From a virus, in the UHGV virus genome UHGV-0040380: 27,512 nucleotides of DNA. One strand, written 5' to 3'. The notes beneath the pieces are model-generated. The model saw only the letters and a program-made list of their open reading frames with translations, did not search any database and was not told the DNA's origin. Both the position numbers and the translations under genes were made by a program. Below, piece by piece: positions 2,084 to 27,370 of this stretch (the first letter of the stretch is position 1; every line of letters starts with the position of its first letter).

Positions 2084-4486
2084 TCACGCCCATGTCGCAT
2101 CTATGTAGAACGTTGGAGATGTAGTGGTGGACCCTTCAATCGATATTTGTCCTGTTGAAGCATTAATGGTGGCCATTGCCATGCCAAATGAAACGCCATC
2201 ATCAGTGAACGGTACAGGGACATTTTTGGTTACTTTTGGTCTGCACCACCTCGGAAGCGTTAGAACAGTATTGCCATTCGCAAATGAAGTGGCTGCCAGT
2301 TTAATATTAATTGAATTGGCAGTTAAACTTGACGGTGCCTGTACTGTTACGTTTGTTCCAGCCCACCATTGAACAGCTGCTCTTGGCGTGTAATCAACAC
2401 GCGACCACCAGTCGATAATGGCAGAGCAGATAATTTCCGCATACAGACGATACCCTAACTGGCTTTGGTGAATGTCATCACGCAGAAGTGGGTCGTATTG
2501 CGTGTTGAAATACTCTGGATATGGGGCCGGGAGCTGGTGAGTTGTTGTTACACAAATGACGTTATTGCCATATTTCATCATCTGGCGTTTACCAGCCTCG
2601 CGTAACTCCGCAACACCATCGTAATTTGCTGATGGCTGACCAGCCCCTCCAATAAATGACTGGCTATACCACATCCACGGCTCAACCCAAACAGGTACAC
2701 GCCCGAGACTGTTGCAATATAAGACAAACTCATCTATCAGTGCCGCCATATAATCGCCGTTTTGGTTTCCCTGCCCTTCGTTAGTTCCGGCAACCATAAT
2801 AACGATGTAAGCATCACCCGGCCCCTGAGCCTTCAGGAGATCTAACTGTTGCCTCATTGTCTGTCCGGCAACCGCCTTGTTTACAATGCTATATGAACGG
2901 TGTCCGTTCGCTCCATCCATTAATTGCGGAATGTACGAGCTGAACGCAGAAATGAAATCCTCAGCTGTACTATCACCGTGGATAAGGATATTAAGTGGAG
3001 GCTTACAGTGCACACCATTATCAGAGGTATAGCTAGTCACGCCAGTTACTCGTACAATCGTATTGGGAGCACTACTATTAGCTACAAATCCTACCTCGTA
3101 AACGTCACCTACCGCCGAAGTATCATATGGCAGTCTAAAGCTAACACCATTCATTGTAATTACAGCCCAGTTCTTTGACTGTAATGCCACCCCAATAGTA
3201 GCCTTACCGGGAGCGTAGGACAGCAACCCTCCAGGAAGTGAGAATGGAGAACCGTTTACTACCGCGCCTCCAATTGCTTTCTGCCGTACATCCCATTGTG
3301 GAGCACCAGGAGCGCCGTAGAACATCACCCATCCACCTGAGCACCGTAACACAATACCCACTTCATTAAGAGTATTAGACTCAGCACGAATATGTCCTGA
3401 CACATGCTCACCTACTGCAATGGGTACGAACAATCCACGGGTAACAGAATCGGGTAGAGCAAATAGGGCTGCCGTTTCGGAGCTAGCGAATAATGGACCC
3501 TGAGGCGTAAATGAATCCCCGTCCACTGCATAGACAACACAATCAGACCATTCCACTCGCTTCATGCGAATAGGGTTTCGGTTGAGGATGGCCTGCTTAG
3601 CCAGATAATCCACTTCTCCACCGGTTGTTGTGAAATTAAGATGGGAAAACTCAAAAGTGCATTCACCTTCAAACTTCAGCGACTTATAAAGCGAGTAAAG
3701 ATCGCTGTCGAATTTAAGAATGACGTTTTTATCAACGATTACACGGGAGTTTTGCAGATTTCCTGCCTGTGAGGCCGTTCCTGGTATTGTATAAGTTTTC
3801 TTTGTTGCAGAGTGGCAAGGGAAATAAACATAGCCATAGAGATTTACACTCTCCACCCATGCTGCAACAACGTTTGATTGATTGTAAGATGGCATAACGG
3901 TGATTGGTATCGGCTCAAATTTATCCACACCACCGATCTTTTTCCATCCGTCAGGCTGAGCAAGAAGAATCAGCACTTCACTGGCAGAAGCACTCGGAGG
4001 GAGAATGGCTATAGGCTGCCCACTGTCATCCCAGCCAAAAATCATATTCCGGCGACTTGATACCTTTGGCACCAGGTTTACACTGTTTTCAGGAACCCTA
4101 AGCGTATTTCTCTGAAGAGCACCGATGTTGAACATCGCATGCTGAATAAGCATGGTCAGGTAGTCGAATGCATCCTCATGGACCTCTGCAAAAAATTTCC
4201 CCTGATTTCTTAAATCAGTTTCCTGCACTGCTGGAAGGTTACGAGTGATTGATATTGTAATGCCTGGCAAAACAGGAGATGACGTAATAACGCTTCCACC
4301 GGAAGATAAGCCAGCACCTGTAACCATGTAATCTGTCCCCAGGCTCATTGGAGAAACAAGACCGTCAGCGGTTATTGTGCTTACATCAAGATCTGTGTCT
4401 TTAAAAATTCTGAAAGTATATGGGAATGATGTCGTGACTCCATTCCCGAGATACTCATTGTGGCTGATTTCGGTTGAGACTGTCAT
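2084..4486 (-). CDS. Tail fibre/tailspike: T7 gp17-like N-terminal adaptor domain, central receptor-binding region, C-terminal SGNH/GDSL hydrolase (esterase) domain
   Basis: 800 aa. The N-terminal ~110 aa follow the T7 tail-fibre attachment pattern (YLGNG..FPYTF...DY...I.I.R......DL, recalled from memory). Residues ~497-690 carry SGNH blocks: HGDST (Ser codon at 2969-2971), VAGTNEG, DDIHQS. GGAGA 6 nt upstream of the ATG at 4486. Confidence 0.8.
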   Translation of the reverse strand: MTVSTEISHNEYLGNGVTTSFPYTFRIFKDTDLDVSTITADGLVSPMSLGTDYMVTGAGLSSGGSVITSSPVLPGITISITRNLPAVQETDLRNQGKFFAEVHEDAFDYLTMLIQHAMFNIGALQRNTLRVPENSVNLVPKVSSRRNMIFGWDDSGQPIAILPPSASASEVLILLAQPDGWKKIGGVDKFEPIPITVMPSYNQSNVVAAWVESVNLYGYVYFPCHSATKKTYTIPGTASQAGNLQNSRVIVDKNVILKFDSDLYSLYKSLKFEGECTFEFSHLNFTTTGGEVDYLAKQAILNRNPIRMKRVEWSDCVVYAVDGDSFTPQGPLFASSETAALFALPDSVTRGLFVPIAVGEHVSGHIRAESNTLNEVGIVLRCSGGWVMFYGAPGAPQWDVRQKAIGGAVVNGSPFSLPGGLLSYAPGKATIGVALQSKNWAVITMNGVSFRLPYDTSAVGDVYEVGFVANSSAPNTIVRVTGVTSYTSDNGVHCKPPLNILIHGDSTAEDFISAFSSYIPQLMDGANGHRSYSIVNKAVAGQTMRQQLDLLKAQGPGDAYIVIMVAGTNEGQGNQNGDYMAALIDEFVLYCNSLGRVPVWVEPWMWYSQSFIGGAGQPSANYDGVAELREAGKRQMMKYGNNVICVTTTHQLPAPYPEYFNTQYDPLLRDDIHQSQLGYRLYAEIICSAIIDWWSRVDYTPRAAVQWWAGTNVTVQAPSSLTANSINIKLAATSFANGNTVLTLPRWCRPKVTKNVPVPFTDDGVSFGMAMATINASTGQISIEGSTTTSPTFYIDATWA

Positions 4487-4681: not shown

Positions 4682-4939
4682 ATGCAGCAGTATCACTATC
4701 CACTGGAAGACGGATTTACCGAAAGGATTCACACGCCGGGAGGCGTCAGGTCACTGGTGGAGGGATCGCACTTGATGAAATTACTCCGGGATCTCGATAA
4801 GGATGGATTTAATGTCGATGGCCCACTTGCCGAACTGACTGCACTGATTAACTACGTCACCAGCTCGCAGATGTCTATGCAGGATCTGCAAACACATCTC
4901 GACTATTGTGCCGAACAATTACGAAAACAAACCAGATAA
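4682..4939 (+). CDS. SOS-regulated small protein of unknown function (85 aa); candidate LexA-controlled antirepressor or moron
   Basis: ATG at 4682 preceded by GGAGAAG; opposite in orientation to all neighbouring structural genes; LexA box immediately upstream. No motif recognised in the sequence. The longer ORF-track start at 4559 would translate through the operator and has no SD. Confidence 0.5.
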   Translation: MQQYHYPLEDGFTERIHTPGGVRSLVEGSHLMKLLRDLDKDGFNVDGPLAELTALINYVTSSQMSMQDLQTHLDYCAEQLRKQTR

Positions 4940-4942
4940 GGT

Positions 4943-4985
4943 TTGAAATTACCAAATGGAGTGCTTATATTTACCTTTGCGGTAA
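4943..4985 (+). promoter_or_regulatory. Sigma70-like promoter (TTGAAA-17-TATATT) abutting operator-like dyad TTACCTTTGCGGTAA (copy 2)
   Basis: -35 TTGAAA (4943-4948), 17-bp spacer, -10 TATATT (4966-4971); the dyad (4971-4985) starts at the last base of the -10 hexamer. Confidence 0.4.
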
Positions 4986-5126
4986 ATTTACATCGCACTC
5001 CTCTTGTGCCATAGTAATCGGGCACTGGCAAAATCCAGTGCTGGGATTGGTCTCCCGGATTACTACAGAGTTAGTGCTACACTCATTGACGCCACATTGA
5101 GGTGGCTTATAGATGGAAATTTCACA

Positions 5127-5288
5127 ATGAAAAAAGCATTTGCTGCACTGTTCGTTTTGTTGTCTCTGGTAGCTTCAACTCAGGCCTTTGCCGGTCGTTG
5201 TCAGCACGACAGCGACACTGCTGCTGACGGCTCCCGCTGCGGTGGGCGTTCTGCGGATTCCCGCCCTGGCGGCGGTGGCATTCGTTAA
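5127..5288 (+). CDS. Small secreted peptide (53-aa precursor with a Sec-type signal peptide)
   Basis: MKKAFAALFVLLSLVASTQAFA has textbook n/h/c regions and an AxA cleavage site; predicted 31-aa mature peptide is G/R/D/S-rich with two Cys. The SD is weak and it is shorter than the ORF-track cutoff, so confidence is modest. Confidence 0.4.
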   Translation: MKKAFAALFVLLSLVASTQAFAGRCQHDSDTAADGSRCGGRSADSRPGGGGIR

Positions 5289-5311
5289 AAACAAGGCCGC
5301 GAAAGCGGCCT
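5286..5311 (-). terminator. Rho-independent terminator after the membrane-protein gene
   Basis: Stem AGGCCGC / GCGGCCT (5294-5300, 5305-5311) with GAAA loop; on the minus strand it is followed by TTGTTTTT (plus-strand A-tract 5286-5292). Confidence 0.6.
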
Positions 5312-5323
5312 GTGACATGTCAC
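5312..5323. repeat. 12-bp perfect palindrome GTGACATGTCAC (copy 1 of 3)
   Basis: Identical 12-mers at 5312-5323, 22855-22866 and 25120-25131; here it overlaps the TGA stop of the 5320-5616 gene and abuts the terminator hairpin. Confidence 0.6.
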
Positions 5324-5616
5324 GTTCCTTTTCTGAATGATAGCCGTTCGAAAAATGATGACATTCCACCGCAGACAATAGCAAAGATGATCCCACCAAA
5401 GAAGAGAAGGCCAGCCTGCCACCACTCCCACCGCCATACATCCACAGCACCAACCATACCAACAATCGCTCCAACAAATGGAATATAGCTCACGATGAAA
5501 GCAATGGGGGCTGCAATTATCCAGTGCAATCCCCACCATGATTCAAGCCCAGCCATAATTGCTGCCAACTGAAAAAGACCAACGACGATATAAACAATGA
5601 ATCCTATAGCTTGCAT
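5320..5616 (-). CDS. Small integral membrane protein (98 aa, three predicted TM helices), standalone gene with its own terminator
   Basis: AGGTGA SD 5 nt before the ATG at 5616; highly hydrophobic with W/G-rich loops; followed by a terminator; lies between the core-protein genes and the tailspike, a position not occupied in T7-type modules. Confidence 0.55.
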   Translation of the reverse strand: MQAIGFIVYIVVGLFQLAAIMAGLESWWGLHWIIAAPIAFIVSYIPFVGAIVGMVGAVDVWRWEWWQAGLLFFGGIIFAIVCGGMSSFFERLSFRKGT

Positions 5617-5628
5617 GTAGTCACCTAT

Positions 5629-5802
5629 TTACCCAGTAAAAATCAGAGGCCTCCCCTCAATAAGGCTTGCAACAAGAACTATTCCCTGCACAACAAAGAT
5701 GAACCAGCAAATAGCTTGAGTCTGAGGGTTAAGAAAATATTTGTAGCGGTCAATAAATAACAACCCACCAGAAATTATCACACTCAAAATAATTAAAAAC
5801 AC
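5629..5802 (-). CDS. Possible small membrane peptide (57 aa, GTG start)
   Basis: GTG at 5802 preceded by AGGAAG with 4-nt spacing; translation (M)FLIILSVIISGGLLFIDRYKYFLNPQTQAICWFIFVVQGIVLVASLIEGRPLIFTG has two hydrophobic segments; fills the gap between the 5812-8286 gene and the membrane-protein gene. Below the ORF-track size cutoff. Confidence 0.2.
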   Translation of the reverse strand: MFLIILSVIISGGLLFIDRYKYFLNPQTQAICWFIFVVQGIVLVASLIEGRPLIFTG

Positions 5803-5811
5803 AACACTTCC

Positions 5812-8286
5812 TTATTGCGGAGTGACATCCTGAGGTCGCCACCAGTATGTCTGATTAAACTCTTTCTTCGAACGTTGCTCCATTTTACGCAAATAGCCTG
5901 GTGAAAAATACTCCTGCATCTGGTTAAAGATCATATGATCGAGAGCCGCCTTTAAGTACCAGAGATTCGCACCGGGCATCAAACCTTTCCCCAGCTTCAC
6001 CAGATCACCACCAGTCTGCTCACTCTTCCCTTCCACAGCATTTAACGGTATGCCCTGAGCAATCTTCACTACGTCATCAACCAGACCAGCTACCGGGCCA
6101 AGCATCGACGCCAGCGCGCCGCTTCCGTACCTAGTGTGATCTGACAATAAAAAGTCACCGTAAAGGCCAAGGCCACCACCTTTCAGTAGAGCACCAAGCC
6201 AGAATTTTGCGGCACCTTCTCCTGTCATCTCTCGAGGATTACGACCAGACGCAAGGTCGTTAAGTTGCTGCGACAAAGCGCCAAGAATGGTCGTACTGGC
6301 AATAAACGTCGCAATATATGCCGCACGCCCACCAGCAGACGGCATACCCATAGCGCGTGACCAGTGACGCATAACAACCGAGATAGGGAACGATTTAAAC
6401 AGGAAAACACTTCTCGTTAATTCACCTTTCCATGTTCCACGCTGAATACCAGAACCGGTTATCAGTTGCTCACGAGCTCCCGGTGTAATAACAGCCATAT
6501 CAACTTCTTCAGTTACGGCACCGAGCAATTTACGCATTGCCTCAAATTTCACGCGCTCAGGCTCACCAAGATGTTTAACTGCTGAATCAGGGATACGCAT
6601 AATGCTTTCCGGTGTCAGCATCGTATTATTACCGTTCCCCCAGTCCTCCTGTTGCGCCAGCTTCCATACGCTCCAGTCTGTGTCAGTAATCCCTTTGCTT
6701 TTCAGGATACGAAAATCAGAGTCATCGAGGCTACGAAGGTCTGGTGTCCGTGACACTACTTCTCCCAGGCTTCCCATCATGGTTACGCCATAGGCGCGCT
6801 TGTGCGCATCTGACCATGCTGTAAGCCCACTGGCACGCATTACCGCCGTTGCCGCCCAACGAGACACTGACGGCCCCATATTATCCATCGCCCAGCGGTT
6901 AACGCTGCCAAGTAGAGATTCCATCGCCAGACCAGCGCGGCGCGCCCGCGCAAGTTCTGTACGGTTCGTTGGGTCCATAGCTTCAAGCTGGTTGCGGAAT
7001 AACTGGTTCATTGGAAGGTTGGTAACCTTCGCAGACAGATACATGGTTCCAAGATCAGAGAACGATGACAGCAACGCGGATCCGAGTCTGCTGGCAACCA
7101 GCCAGTTGCGGATATTGTCAGACCATCGCGCGATGTGCGGATTCGCTACAGGCTGTGTCTTTCCGGAAATAAAGTTGTACAGATTCTCTGTGTTGTTCGC
7201 CAGCCGCTCGACTTTACCGGTTTTACTCGGGTTAGCTGTTGCCGTTTCTGCCTTCACCTGATCAAGAAGAGAGCGGAAAACATGATCGGGGTTTGGGCCA
7301 TATGTTTCCACCAGTGCAATATCTTTACTGATACCTTCCAGGTGACCGACCATGATTTCCCATAGAGAGCGATCACCATAAAGTTGTTGATATTGGAGAT
7401 AGGAATCTGCATCTTTGAAATGTATCTGTCGTGATGCATTACCACGGTTAGCACGTGCGCCGGAAATTCGCATTCCGGTATCAGTAAGCTTATTCAGCCC
7501 ACCAGTAGCGATCGTGTTATAAGCCTCTCCAAGAAATGCAGACAACTCGGCATCGTTCATCAGTTGTCCATCGGCTCGGGTATAATATTTGCGATCCAGC
7601 TTACCTATAACATCGCCAACCCACTTATCCTTTGATACCGCCCCAACCTTTTCCATAGAATGATGTTGAGGGATCCCCCAGTTTTCGAGATAGCCAATGT
7701 CCCCACCAGCATCATTAAACCGGCGGCGCAGCAGCTCTGTAACTTCTCTCCACGCCTTAGCACCTTTTCTTGCTTTAGCATTGCCAGTATTTTGCCCCCG
7801 CATTTCATATACCAGGTCACGTACGCCCGCTTCATCTTCAAACAGACCAAAAAAGCGAGGATCAACTGCTTCGAATGCCTCCTGCAATTGACTCAATGCA
7901 TAATCACGGGTGGCTTTTGTTCTGGATTCAACAGAGAGGAAATTAGATTTACCGTCTGCATTAAAAGCTATAGTACGGTTAAGAGCGCCAAGTTTCCCAT
8001 CAGCCCCTTGATAGCTATTGATAAATTTATCCAATCTCTGACGCGCGGCTATAGTGAGAGCCACACGACGTTTCTTTAATGCCGCTTCTCGCTGTAATTC
8101 TTCAGATGCCAATTGTGCTGCTCGATATAGCCGCTCTGATTCGGAAAGTTGTCGCCACGACATCGGATCATCACGAGCAATGGAGCGCATATTTCGATAA
8201 ATGCGGTCTTCAATGTTCTGTATTTCTCGCGCCGTTAACGTGCGCTGCGCCGCCTGCTGGACCGCTTGTATACATTCCTGTCTCAT
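5812..8286 (-). CDS. Internal virion (core/ejection) protein, large
   Basis: 824 aa; last of three consecutive large proteins translationally coupled downstream of the tubular proteins, matching the position of T7 gp15/gp16-class core proteins; no enzymatic motif recognised. Confidence 0.55.
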   Translation of the reverse strand: MRQECIQAVQQAAQRTLTAREIQNIEDRIYRNMRSIARDDPMSWRQLSESERLYRAAQLASEELQREAALKKRRVALTIAARQRLDKFINSYQGADGKLGALNRTIAFNADGKSNFLSVESRTKATRDYALSQLQEAFEAVDPRFFGLFEDEAGVRDLVYEMRGQNTGNAKARKGAKAWREVTELLRRRFNDAGGDIGYLENWGIPQHHSMEKVGAVSKDKWVGDVIGKLDRKYYTRADGQLMNDAELSAFLGEAYNTIATGGLNKLTDTGMRISGARANRGNASRQIHFKDADSYLQYQQLYGDRSLWEIMVGHLEGISKDIALVETYGPNPDHVFRSLLDQVKAETATANPSKTGKVERLANNTENLYNFISGKTQPVANPHIARWSDNIRNWLVASRLGSALLSSFSDLGTMYLSAKVTNLPMNQLFRNQLEAMDPTNRTELARARRAGLAMESLLGSVNRWAMDNMGPSVSRWAATAVMRASGLTAWSDAHKRAYGVTMMGSLGEVVSRTPDLRSLDDSDFRILKSKGITDTDWSVWKLAQQEDWGNGNNTMLTPESIMRIPDSAVKHLGEPERVKFEAMRKLLGAVTEEVDMAVITPGAREQLITGSGIQRGTWKGELTRSVFLFKSFPISVVMRHWSRAMGMPSAGGRAAYIATFIASTTILGALSQQLNDLASGRNPREMTGEGAAKFWLGALLKGGGLGLYGDFLLSDHTRYGSGALASMLGPVAGLVDDVVKIAQGIPLNAVEGKSEQTGGDLVKLGKGLMPGANLWYLKAALDHMIFNQMQEYFSPGYLRKMEQRSKKEFNQTYWWRPQDVTPQ

Positions 8287-21881: not shown

Positions 21882-21896
21882 TTACCTTTCAGGTAA
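21882..21896. promoter_or_regulatory. Operator-like 15-bp dyad TTACCTTTCAGGTAA (copy 3, perfect)
   Basis: Perfect inverted repeat TTACCT-ttc-AGGTAA; a consensus -35 hexamer TTGACA lies 16 bp upstream (21860-21865) on the plus strand, the strand that carries the tRNA. Confidence 0.4.
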
Positions 21897-22854: not shown

Positions 22855-22866
22855 GTGACATGTCAC
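22855..22866. repeat. 12-bp perfect palindrome GTGACATGTCAC (copy 2 of 3)
   Basis: Lies 5 nt after the stop of the 22494-22850 gene and 4 nt before the terminator stem. Confidence 0.6.
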
Positions 22867-25017: not shown

Positions 25018-25046
25018 TGGTAATAGTTACCGTTGTGGTAATAGTA
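25018..25046. repeat. Tandem direct repeats GTGGTAATAGT x2 (7-bp spacer) in the terS leader
   Basis: Identical 11-mers at 25018-25028 and 25036-25046, between the upstream terminator and the terS RBS. Confidence 0.5.
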
Positions 25047-25119: not shown

Positions 25120-25131
25120 GTGACATGTCAC
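25120..25131. repeat. 12-bp perfect palindrome GTGACATGTCAC (copy 3 of 3)
   Basis: Overlaps the TGA stop of the 25128-25469 gene, as copy 1 does for the 5320-5616 gene. Confidence 0.6.
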
Positions 25132-25469
25132 ACTATTAATTTCGTTTCATGCCAGCCTTTGGTCACCCAGCATTGCGAGTCACCACTACACGGGCATGAA
25201 TTCACAGGAACTCTCTCGCCGCACTTACCGCAACGTTTTCTGCTGATCGATTTTATACGCCCGCGCACGCGTGCATCATCCTGGCGGATCAGTAACGCTA
25301 TATACTCACCAAATTCGTAAGGCGCACGCCCGGGGCGACGCGTGGCGCAGTTCCGCTCCAGCATTTCAATTTCCTGAGCATCAAGCACAATCTCCAGCTT
25401 ACGTACACCGGATGCAGCTTGTCTGGCTCTCTGAGCGGCTTTGCGCTCTGCTGCTGATTTAGCCATCAA
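25128..25469 (-). CDS. Small basic protein with a C-terminal Cys-rich (zinc-finger-like) segment; possible regulator
   Basis: 113 aa; Arg/Lys-rich N-terminus and a CGKCG...CPCSGDSQC cluster; last gene before the terminator that precedes terS. Function not established from sequence. Confidence 0.45.
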   Translation of the reverse strand: MMAKSAAERKAAQRARQAASGVRKLEIVLDAQEIEMLERNCATRRPGRAPYEFGEYIALLIRQDDARVRGRIKSISRKRCGKCGERVPVNSCPCSGDSQCWVTKGWHETKLIV

Positions 25470-26821: not shown

Positions 26822-27370
26822 TCACTCTCCTTTGATGCGAATGCCAGCGGCGCGGATTGCAGCGATGACTTCAGAAACTTTGTATGCCATTACCGTTTGG
26901 TAATCCTCGTGAAAATCTGTTCGATGAAGCATGCTGCTACGTTCCGGGAGCGATATTTCCCGTTCATCCAGTTCTGCTATGCGCTTCTCTGCGGCTTCCA
27001 GCGCTCTTCCCTGCTCGCCATTCTTCTTCTCCAGCGATTCAATTCGGTCAGCCTGCTGGTTGATATGGTTGTCCTGTGCGGACAATACTTTGTCTTTGGC
27101 TTCCCGTTCATCCAGTAGTGCCAGCACGGTAGCTGGATTGGCTGCGGCGATGAATTCAGCATTGGCCTGCTGTTCCATTTGGAAATCTTCATCGAAACCG
27201 CTTTCAGGATGCGCTCCTTCAATTCTGCAAATGGGAAGATATCCAACAACTTCACGATGAATTAGCGCATCACCAGCATCAAATATCTCCTCTCCATATT
27301 CTAGCGACCACACACCACTCGTTGCTTTCTCTGCCTTTTCACGCAGCGCCTGATAGTCAATCTTGTTCAT
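26822..27370 (-). CDS. Ead/Ea22-like prophage protein
   Basis: 182 aa; N-terminus MNKIDYQALREKAEKATSGVWSLEY resembles the conserved start of lambdoid Ea22-like proteins (from memory); coiled-coil C-terminal half. Confidence 0.45.
   Translation of the reverse strand: MNKIDYQALREKAEKATSGVWSLEYGEEIFDAGDALIHREVVGYLPICRIEGAHPESGFDEDFQMEQQANAEFIAAANPATVLALLDEREAKDKVLSAQDNHINQQADRIESLEKKNGEQGRALEAAEKRIAELDEREISLPERSSMLHRTDFHEDYQTVMAYKVSEVIAAIRAAGIRIKGE

Follow-up and report, generated by a model that had tools for sequence, protein, structure and literature searches.

A known block of DNA injection by short-tailed phages is SieA of phage P22, an inner-membrane protein with three transmembrane (TM) segments, which is escaped by mutations in the ejection proteins gp16 and gp20 and is described in a P22 study as the sole system of this kind studied so far (PMC10883804). 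Here we consider two small genes, tm57 (5629–5802) and tm98 (5320–5616), on the minus strand of the virus genome UHGV-0040380 (27,512 nt in all, referred to as the window). Other temperate phages encode morons that block injection or act as exclusion lipoproteins (HK97 gp15, Cor, T5 Llp), and plasmids encode entry-exclusion proteins (TraS, Eex); all of these are small, optional envelope proteins, encoded in or near virion or transfer operons, that stop the entry of related DNA. Judged from their sequences, tm57 and tm98 are two real genes for small inner-membrane proteins, which together form the exchangeable 3′ end of a pilot/ejection-protein operon. Superinfection exclusion, or more generally a block of DNA entry at the envelope, would be the best explanation for the pair, although we give this reading a probability of only about one in three.

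The resemblance to P22 is one of architecture. Like SieA, tm98 is predicted to be a small inner-membrane protein with three TM segments, and both proteins are accessory and variable among relatives. In P22, a temperate podophage, sieA lies between ejection gene 16 and the immI/ant region plus tailspike gene; in the window, a gp17-like pilot gene is followed by tm57, tm98, an isrK/c4-like RNA leader with a gp19-like gene and then the tailspike gene. SieA differs in size (162–164 aa versus 98 aa for tm98) and in conservation, as SieA types diverge to less than 30% identity while tm98 is strongly conserved. In addition, sieA is convergent to gene 16, and the lysogen transcribes it from a promoter of its own; tm98 runs in the same direction as the pilot gene, and no promoter was detected for it.

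The original prediction, drawn from the DNA alone, had set these genes in a T7-type module; matches to phiV10 and epsilon15 place the window instead among the Uetakevirus members, which are epsilon15-like temperate podophages such as Escherichia phage phiV10, phiv142-3 and HEMP4. A prophage in E. coli HN257 is 100% identical over the tm57–tm98 stretch. The late genes lie on the minus strand, and three late proteins (an SLT-domain protein of 862 aa and proteins of 600 and 824 aa) correspond to phiV10 p18, p19 and p20 at 98–99% identity. The 824-aa protein, the product of the final large gene in the late internal-protein operon (5812–8286, minus strand), is the gp17-like internal virion, or pilot/ejection, protein; it is 99% identical to phiV10 p20, annotated as “virion structural protein,” and matches PHROG 684. 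Its C-terminal 249 aa are conserved in 100 podophage records, under the names of internal virion, pilot or structural protein, and it has moderately hydrophobic C-terminal segments at residues 653–673 and 722–743. The epsilon15 cluster has been counted among the syntenic podophage ejection-protein operons in a review (PMC8954989).

Both small genes are tightly packed behind the pilot gene, with 9 nt between the pilot gene and tm57 and 12 nt between tm57 and tm98. The Shine-Dalgarno sequence of tm57, AAGGAAG (5807–5813, minus strand), overlaps the stop codon of the gp17-like gene, and its orthologues carry AAGGGGGA or AAGGAGG at this place. That of tm98, AGGTGA (5621–5626, minus strand), is part of a conserved junction, AAATAGGTGAC(T/C)ACATG, which precedes tm98 behind several unrelated upstream genes. 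A consensus scan, which weak or atypical promoters could escape, found no sigma-70-like site on the minus strand from 5800 to approximately 9990. The short gaps and the absence of a promoter-like site indicate that tm57 and tm98 are the last genes of the late internal-protein operon, and the earlier description of them as standalone genes was therefore not accurate. Classical morons carry their own promoter; tm57–tm98 resembles them in being optional among close relatives and in being followed by a terminator, but differs in having no recognizable promoter of its own.

The 98-aa open reading frame (ORF) that had been predicted starts with ATG, and the PGAP annotation of its product is WP_001147903.1. 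Fifty-two homologues of the protein were found. Relative to its Klebsiella and Salmonella orthologues, tm98 shows 36–44 synonymous and 12 non-synonymous differences, giving ratios of non-synonymous to synonymous substitution rates (dN/dS) of 0.034 and 0.058, respectively, at dS values of 0.95–1.7. The protein matches PHROG 3075 over its full length (residues 1–98 on profile positions 1–98, E 5.4e-54, 182 bits). This PHROG profile carries no assigned function, and the tm98 family reaches far beyond phages. In phiv142-3, tm98 is annotated as Orf12 (L029, 7094–7450), and the GenBank record, which has no annotation for tm57, gives it a 20-codon N-terminal extension (118 aa in all) into the tm57 region, which is probably a misannotation of the start codon.

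Hydropathy places three hydrophobic segments in tm98 at residues 1–26, 29–61 and 65–89, and a confident AlphaFold2 model built from 111 homologues (mean pLDDT 90.7) predicts helices at 2–28, 32–44, 46–60 and 65–97, the second and third being separated by a single residue at Pro46, which is nearly invariant. Over the 111 family members, the C-terminal tail has a mean of 2.7 lysine plus arginine (K+R) residues and the short N-terminal tail 0.7, while the two Trp-rich loops are net acidic and have 0.15 and 0.26; the linkers that precede helix 1 in fusion proteins of the family are also Arg-rich. By the positive-inside rule, this distribution favors a cytoplasmic location for both termini and a periplasmic one for both loops, in which case the central, Pro46-kinked segment would enter the membrane as a re-entrant hairpin without crossing it fully. 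Hence, of the three TM helices that had been predicted, the model and hydropathy confirm three hydrophobic helical segments, arranged either as three TM helices or as two TM helices plus a re-entrant hairpin.

The 57-aa peptide with a GTG start that the original prediction had offered as a possible gene is borne out by its two hydrophobic segments (residues 1–20 and 27–51), its conserved start, its homologues and its substitution pattern. The TAA stop of the gp17-like gene (5814–5812) is in frame with tm57 and lies 9 nt before the GTG, which makes the GTG at 5802 the first possible start; Klebsiella, Salmonella and Citrobacter orthologues have TTG at the same codon. We found 13 full-length homologues (56–58 aa, 74–98% identity) in E. 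coli, Citrobacter, Klebsiella, Salmonella and Enterobacter. There are 13–16 synonymous and 14 non-synonymous differences (approximately 39 synonymous and 128 non-synonymous sites), for a dN/dS of 0.19–0.27. Such low ratios in the presence of many synonymous changes indicate that both tm57 and tm98 are real, constrained genes. PGAP does not call tm57 in the identical HN257 sequence, and the peptide has no PHROG match. The GC content of the tm57 region is 37–38%, compared with approximately 50% in the pilot gene and flanks and approximately 48% in tm98.

The stretch from the pilot-gene stop codon to a palindrome and terminator downstream is a hypervariable hot spot for cargo genes. In epsilon15 this slot holds gp18 (64 aa, two TM segments), and in phiV10 and SPN1S it holds a 46-aa peptide, also with two TM segments (p21 of phiV10). 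The gene tm57 is followed by gp18 in one Salmonella prophage (L027), by genes for a 93-aa TM protein and tm98 in another, and by a gene for a 126-aa lipoprotein in a Citrobacter prophage; tm98 follows the pilot gene directly in Cronobacter and Kosakonia prophages. In all 80 loci retrieved from IMG/VR, the pilot gene is followed in most cases by tm57 (63 by our count) and then by tm98, and a second viral scan seeded with a divergent family member returned essentially the same loci. Where tm57 is replaced in IMG/VR loci, its place is taken by a 104-aa protein with two TM segments or by signal-peptide proteins of 103, 133 or 175 aa. All of the alternative occupants are envelope-targeted. In the virulent Vibrio phage phiVC8, whose pilot protein is homologous, the tail fibre gene comes directly after the pilot gene and the slot is empty.

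Epsilon15 gp18, phiV10 p21 and the 46-aa ORF of SPN1S are positional counterparts of tm57: they too are two-TM peptides, and their genes come next after gp17 and precede the same palindrome and terminator. In sequence they differ from it, as gp18 matches PHROG 29212 and p21 matches PHROG 7892, and no similarity of either to tm57 or tm98 was detected. In tblastn searches, tm57 and tm98 had no match in phiV10, and gp18 and p21 had none in the 80 viral loci with tm57 and tm98. The co-occurrence of gp18 with tm57 in the Salmonella prophage L027 means that these two genes are not simple alleles. The 126-aa lipoprotein, encoded at 5279–5659 of the Citrobacter freundii prophage L028, has the lipobox LVGC and matches PHROG 3716; other slot cargo includes the 93-aa TM protein in L026 (5275–5556) and signal-peptide proteins encoded upstream of tm98 in L078 and L098. 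In L026–L028, approximately 95 nt separate tm57 from the next gene, and the end of this spacer is nearly identical to epsilon15 sequence that comprises the 3′ end of gene 17 and the junction with gp18 (ACCAGATTTAGGAAAGGCGGTAGGACAATGATGG). Judging by this match, the spacer looks like a recombination scar left by the insertion of tm57 into an epsilon15-type arrangement.

The tm57–tm98 cassette is present in 205 of 5426 complete E. coli genomes (approximately 4%) and in Klebsiella and Salmonella prophages. A close pilot allele occurs in approximately 316 complete E. coli genomes, although its ratio to the 205 is approximate because megablast misses divergent pilot alleles. Universal conservation in related virulent phages, which would have suggested a structural or assembly role, was not observed: phiVC8 has no tm98, and the gene occurs in 7 phage records versus approximately 100 that have the same pilot domain. 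It is also absent from epsilon15, phiV10 and SPN1S. Importantly, tm98 at 93–99% identity stands behind pilot alleles that are only approximately 27% identical in 7 of 79 IMG/VR loci, while phiV10 has a 99%-identical pilot protein and no tm98, suggestive of portable cargo rather than a co-evolving partner of the pilot protein.

Beyond these phages, a search with a hidden Markov model assigned 745 clusters at 50% identity to the tm98 family (318 at E ≤ 1e-10), most of them approximately 100 aa long and with near-invariant residues Q16, A19, P46, G49, G53, G56, A57, W61, W63 and F72. Homologues reach the Alphaproteobacteria, Desulfovibrio and Chloroflexi. One follows a 26%-identical gp17 homologue in a differently organized Salmonella prophage, and another lies beside Bro-N and tailspike genes in a podophage-like prophage of Yersinia; others are found at the end of a prophage, where an integrase is the neighbor, in an integrative element that also has genes for a primase, an SLT protein, AlpA and Abi_2 or SocA, on a plasmid-like contig with replicase and ProQ genes, and in the Buttiauxella chromosome between umuDC and yejM. 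HicAB genes are also among the neighbors, and in two alphaproteobacterial genomes (L005, 8308–8646; L007, 8304–8594) a gene for a small membrane protein with DUF6804 comes after the homologue. Fusions to DUF805, RDD, MORN or zinc-ribbon modules occur in part of the family, but these modules are all themselves uncharacterized and give no functional clue. A 427-aa member (P0061) contains four tandem copies of the tm98 domain, a hint of an oligomeric functional unit. The tm57–tm98 pair is typical prophage accessory cargo, and it can now be placed as an occupant of a palindrome-bounded slot, with tm98 belonging to a large, unnamed family of membrane proteins.

The proposal that tm98 and tm57 exclude superinfecting phages follows from the SieA-parallel layout of the locus and from the nature of the slot, whose cargo is optional, directed to the envelope and horizontally mobile. 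According to this proposal, tm98 would reside in the inner membrane with its K/R-rich C terminus, and probably its N terminus, in the cytoplasm and its two acidic, Trp-rich loops in the periplasm, would probably oligomerize through its Gly-rich helices, and would most likely disturb the building of the trans-envelope DNA channel by an incoming podophage, acting like P22 SieA without kinship in sequence. The strong conservation of tm98 across very different mobile elements suggests that its target is more likely a conserved component of the host inner membrane than the fast-evolving pilot protein. Because the layout implies transcription with the late operon, protection may be largely confined to cells that are induced or infected, unless a promoter has escaped detection. 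A wider version of the proposal, to which we give a slim chance, would make the whole tm98 family DNA-entry exclusion factors of phages, plasmids and integrative elements, which occupy a conserved host inner-membrane component needed by trans-envelope DNA channels and have been recruited repeatedly to the 3′ ends of pilot operons, with GTGACATGTCAC, the palindrome that bounds the slot, marking boundaries of exchange or regulation.

Several observations weigh against exclusion. Sequence comparisons revealed no homology of tm57 or tm98 to SieA, to the PADLOC models or to Pfam or NCBIfam families: neither protein has a family match in Pfam or NCBIfam, PADLOC-DB gave no match at E ≤ 0.1 for tm98, tm57 or their two plus-strand neighbors, a profile search of PDB sequences gave a noise match only (E = 1), and the best Foldseek hit of the tm98 model against BFVD had an E value of 1.6. 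Membership of tm98 in the SieA family was rejected, as hhalign of the 111-sequence tm98-family profile against P22 SieA (type A) gave a probability of 0.5% over 7 aligned columns. The co-orientation of the two genes 9–12 nt behind a late pilot gene, with no apparent promoter in the approximately 4 kb upstream, points to late-only expression, which would be unusual for an exclusion factor. In the one transcription study of a prophage with the gene (phiv142-3), Orf12 is not among the genes reported as up-regulated in serum; the supplement of that study lists up-regulated genes only and gives no basal level. Moreover, the very strong purifying selection and wide taxonomic reach of tm98 appear atypical, since exclusion proteins usually diversify fast; these features suggest that its target is a conserved host component or that its membrane activity is intrinsic. 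What stands of the original prediction, then, is that the locus holds real, accessory membrane-protein genes in a SieA-like position; homology to SieA or to defence systems, and an evident promoter for expression in the lysogen, are missing from the case for exclusion.

A possible, if somewhat unlikely, alternative is that tm57 and tm98 are made late along with the pilot proteins and help the lytic cycle in the producing cell, where they could, for example, shield the inner membrane from freshly synthesized pilot protein, which is membrane-active, or prepare the membrane for assembly or exit. Such a role would fit the tight, promoterless linkage to the operon, the presence of a pilot gene upstream of tm98 in 80 of 80 IMG/VR loci and of a small TM gene right after gp17 in every enterobacterial Uetakevirus examined, and the location of tm98 homologues 2–36 nt after gp17-family genes that share only 24–26% identity (Cronobacter, Kosakonia and Salmonella lineages). 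It is difficult to reconcile with the 99%-identical pilot protein that works in phiV10 without tm98, with the pairing of near-identical tm98 copies with pilot alleles of approximately 27% identity, with the variety of non-homologous proteins, periplasmic proteins and a lipoprotein included, that fill a slot left empty in phiVC8, and with family members that have no pilot gene nearby (on the plasmid-like contig, in the chromosome and next to integrases). The homologues in the Buttiauxella chromosome, on the plasmid-like contig and in integrative elements would fit the idea that tm98 is generic mobile-element cargo with a host-directed membrane function unrelated to exclusion, i.e. lysogenic conversion in a broad sense, which would include stress tolerance, ion or small-molecule handling or the modulation of a host membrane machine. 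The size of the family (745 clusters) and its near-invariant residues, as well as the DUF805, RDD, MORN and zinc-ribbon fusions, the four-fold tandem repeat and the pairing with DUF6804 in Alphaproteobacteria, are consistent with this idea. We nevertheless consider it rather unlikely, as the phage copies are consistently located in the ejection-to-tailspike island beside envelope proteins, which points to a phage-related role, as no promoter for lysogenic expression was detected, and as the fusion partners are as uncharacterized as tm98 itself.

The lateness and small, multi-TM nature of tm98 would also suit a holin, antiholin or other lysis-timing protein, and Pfam returned a weak match to Phage_holin_5_2. 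That match (E 0.027, 15.1 bits) is far below the cut-off of 29.2 bits, however, and the window has a separate, complete lysis cassette at 187–1981 (two holin-type proteins, endolysin, Rz/Rz1), to which tm98 is unrelated; a paralogous relationship of tm98 to these holins was rejected on an hhalign probability of 0.3% or less. Because, in addition, most related phages lyse without tm98, a lysis function is very improbable. Finally, that the two genes are chance ORFs or decaying, functionless remnants might be supposed from the non-ATG start of tm57 and from its omission by PGAP in HN257, but this idea can hardly be entertained: it is effectively refuted by dN/dS values of 0.03–0.27 with many synonymous changes, by the conservation of the Shine-Dalgarno sequence and start position and by full-length homologues across genera.

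Should tm98 or tm57 prove to block the entry of DNA, they would form only the second system studied that prevents short-tailed phages from injecting, and a family with more than 700 sequence clusters would gain a function. Because the cassette is common in E. coli and also present in Klebsiella and Salmonella prophages, it could then affect the host range of phages used in therapy against these species. A late action alongside the pilot proteins would instead indicate an unrecognized step in podophage morphogenesis or exit. Either way, the variable slot constitutes a compact natural library of small envelope proteins.

The slot is closed by the palindrome and the terminator. As had been predicted, one copy of GTGACATGTCAC (5312–5323) contains the TGA stop codon of tm98 (5322–5320). 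Three exact copies of this 12-mer are found in the window, compared with 0.06 expected, and it recurs at the same position behind different terminal genes in epsilon15, phiV10 and Klebsiella and Cronobacter prophages, which makes it a conserved end-of-operon boundary. With its middle base left free, the palindrome follows tm98 in 77 of 80 IMG/VR loci. The TGA stop codon of the last gene lies inside it in the window, in epsilon15, in the Salmonella prophage L027 and in Klebsiella loci, and one-base variants of the 12-mer hold the stop codon likewise in L026, which ends in tm98, and L028, which ends in the lipoprotein gene. The palindrome was rejected as an epsilon15 repressor operator, which is annotated as ATTACC-N5-GGTAAT. 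It may be a protein-binding site, an element of a bidirectional terminator or a cassette boundary. The other two exact copies, at 22855–22866 and 25120–25131, bracket the terminase genes: one overlaps the TGA of a 113-aa ORF (25128–25469, minus strand) just upstream of a terS-like gene, and the other follows a terminator hairpin downstream of a terL-like gene. In the epsilon15 record, the same 12-mer occurs after terL (position 2142) and after gp18 (19517).

The terminator that had been predicted downstream of tm98 is a strong rho-independent one (5284–5311, minus strand), which ends the late internal-protein operon. Its hairpin (5311–5294), AGGCCGC-TTTC-GCGGCCT, has a 7-bp stem with 6 GC pairs and a 4-nt loop and is followed by TGTTTTT; the surrounding 56 nt fold at −17.4 kcal/mol (z = −2.5). 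The phiV10 and epsilon15 records list the equivalent hairpin as a terminator, and this terminator is common to whatever gene ends the operon. A weak hairpin within the 3′ end of tm57 (5666–5645) was dismissed as it is not conserved in Klebsiella. The 35-nt terminator and palindrome (within 5290–5325) alone match approximately 250 further complete E. coli genomes that do not have the tm57–tm98 cassette.

Convergent to tm98, on the plus strand, is a gene for a 53-aa signal-peptide protein (5127–5288), which matches PHROG 14503 (“membrane associated protein,” moron category). The protein begins MKKAFAALFVLLSLVASTQAFAGRCQHD... and would be a secreted or membrane-anchored peptide. Upstream of it, also on the plus strand, is a two-hairpin RNA leader (5009–5087) that resembles isrK and c4-a1b1, an immI-type control element for antirepressors; its Rfam scores (isrK, 42.1 bits, E 7e-8; c4-a1b1, 31.5 bits, E 3e-6) are both below the gathering scores. 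The loops of its two hairpins, CAAAAUC and UUGG, resemble those in the targets of antisense RNAs of the P1 c4 type, by which antirepressors are controlled. The leader precedes only the 53-aa ORF, which suggests that the immI region is truncated or rearranged; a Bro-N antirepressor is encoded at the corresponding place in phiV10 and many relatives. An 85-aa gene similar to epsilon15 gp19 (PHROG 450) lies on the same strand at 4682–4939. Inverted repeats of the form TTACC-N4-5-GGTAA, which resemble the epsilon15 repressor operators, occur at 4971–4985, 21882–21896, 25027–25041 and 26890–26903, and the repeat at 4971 adjoins the −10 element of the strongest predicted plus-strand promoter (4943–4971), which precedes both the isrK-like leader and the 53-aa ORF. 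Beyond the accessory island, the next late gene is that of the tailspike (2084–4486, minus strand), which carries an epsilon15-type adaptor at its N terminus (first ~120 aa) and an SGNH/GDSL esterase-like domain at its C terminus, suggestive of a receptor-deacetylating spike.

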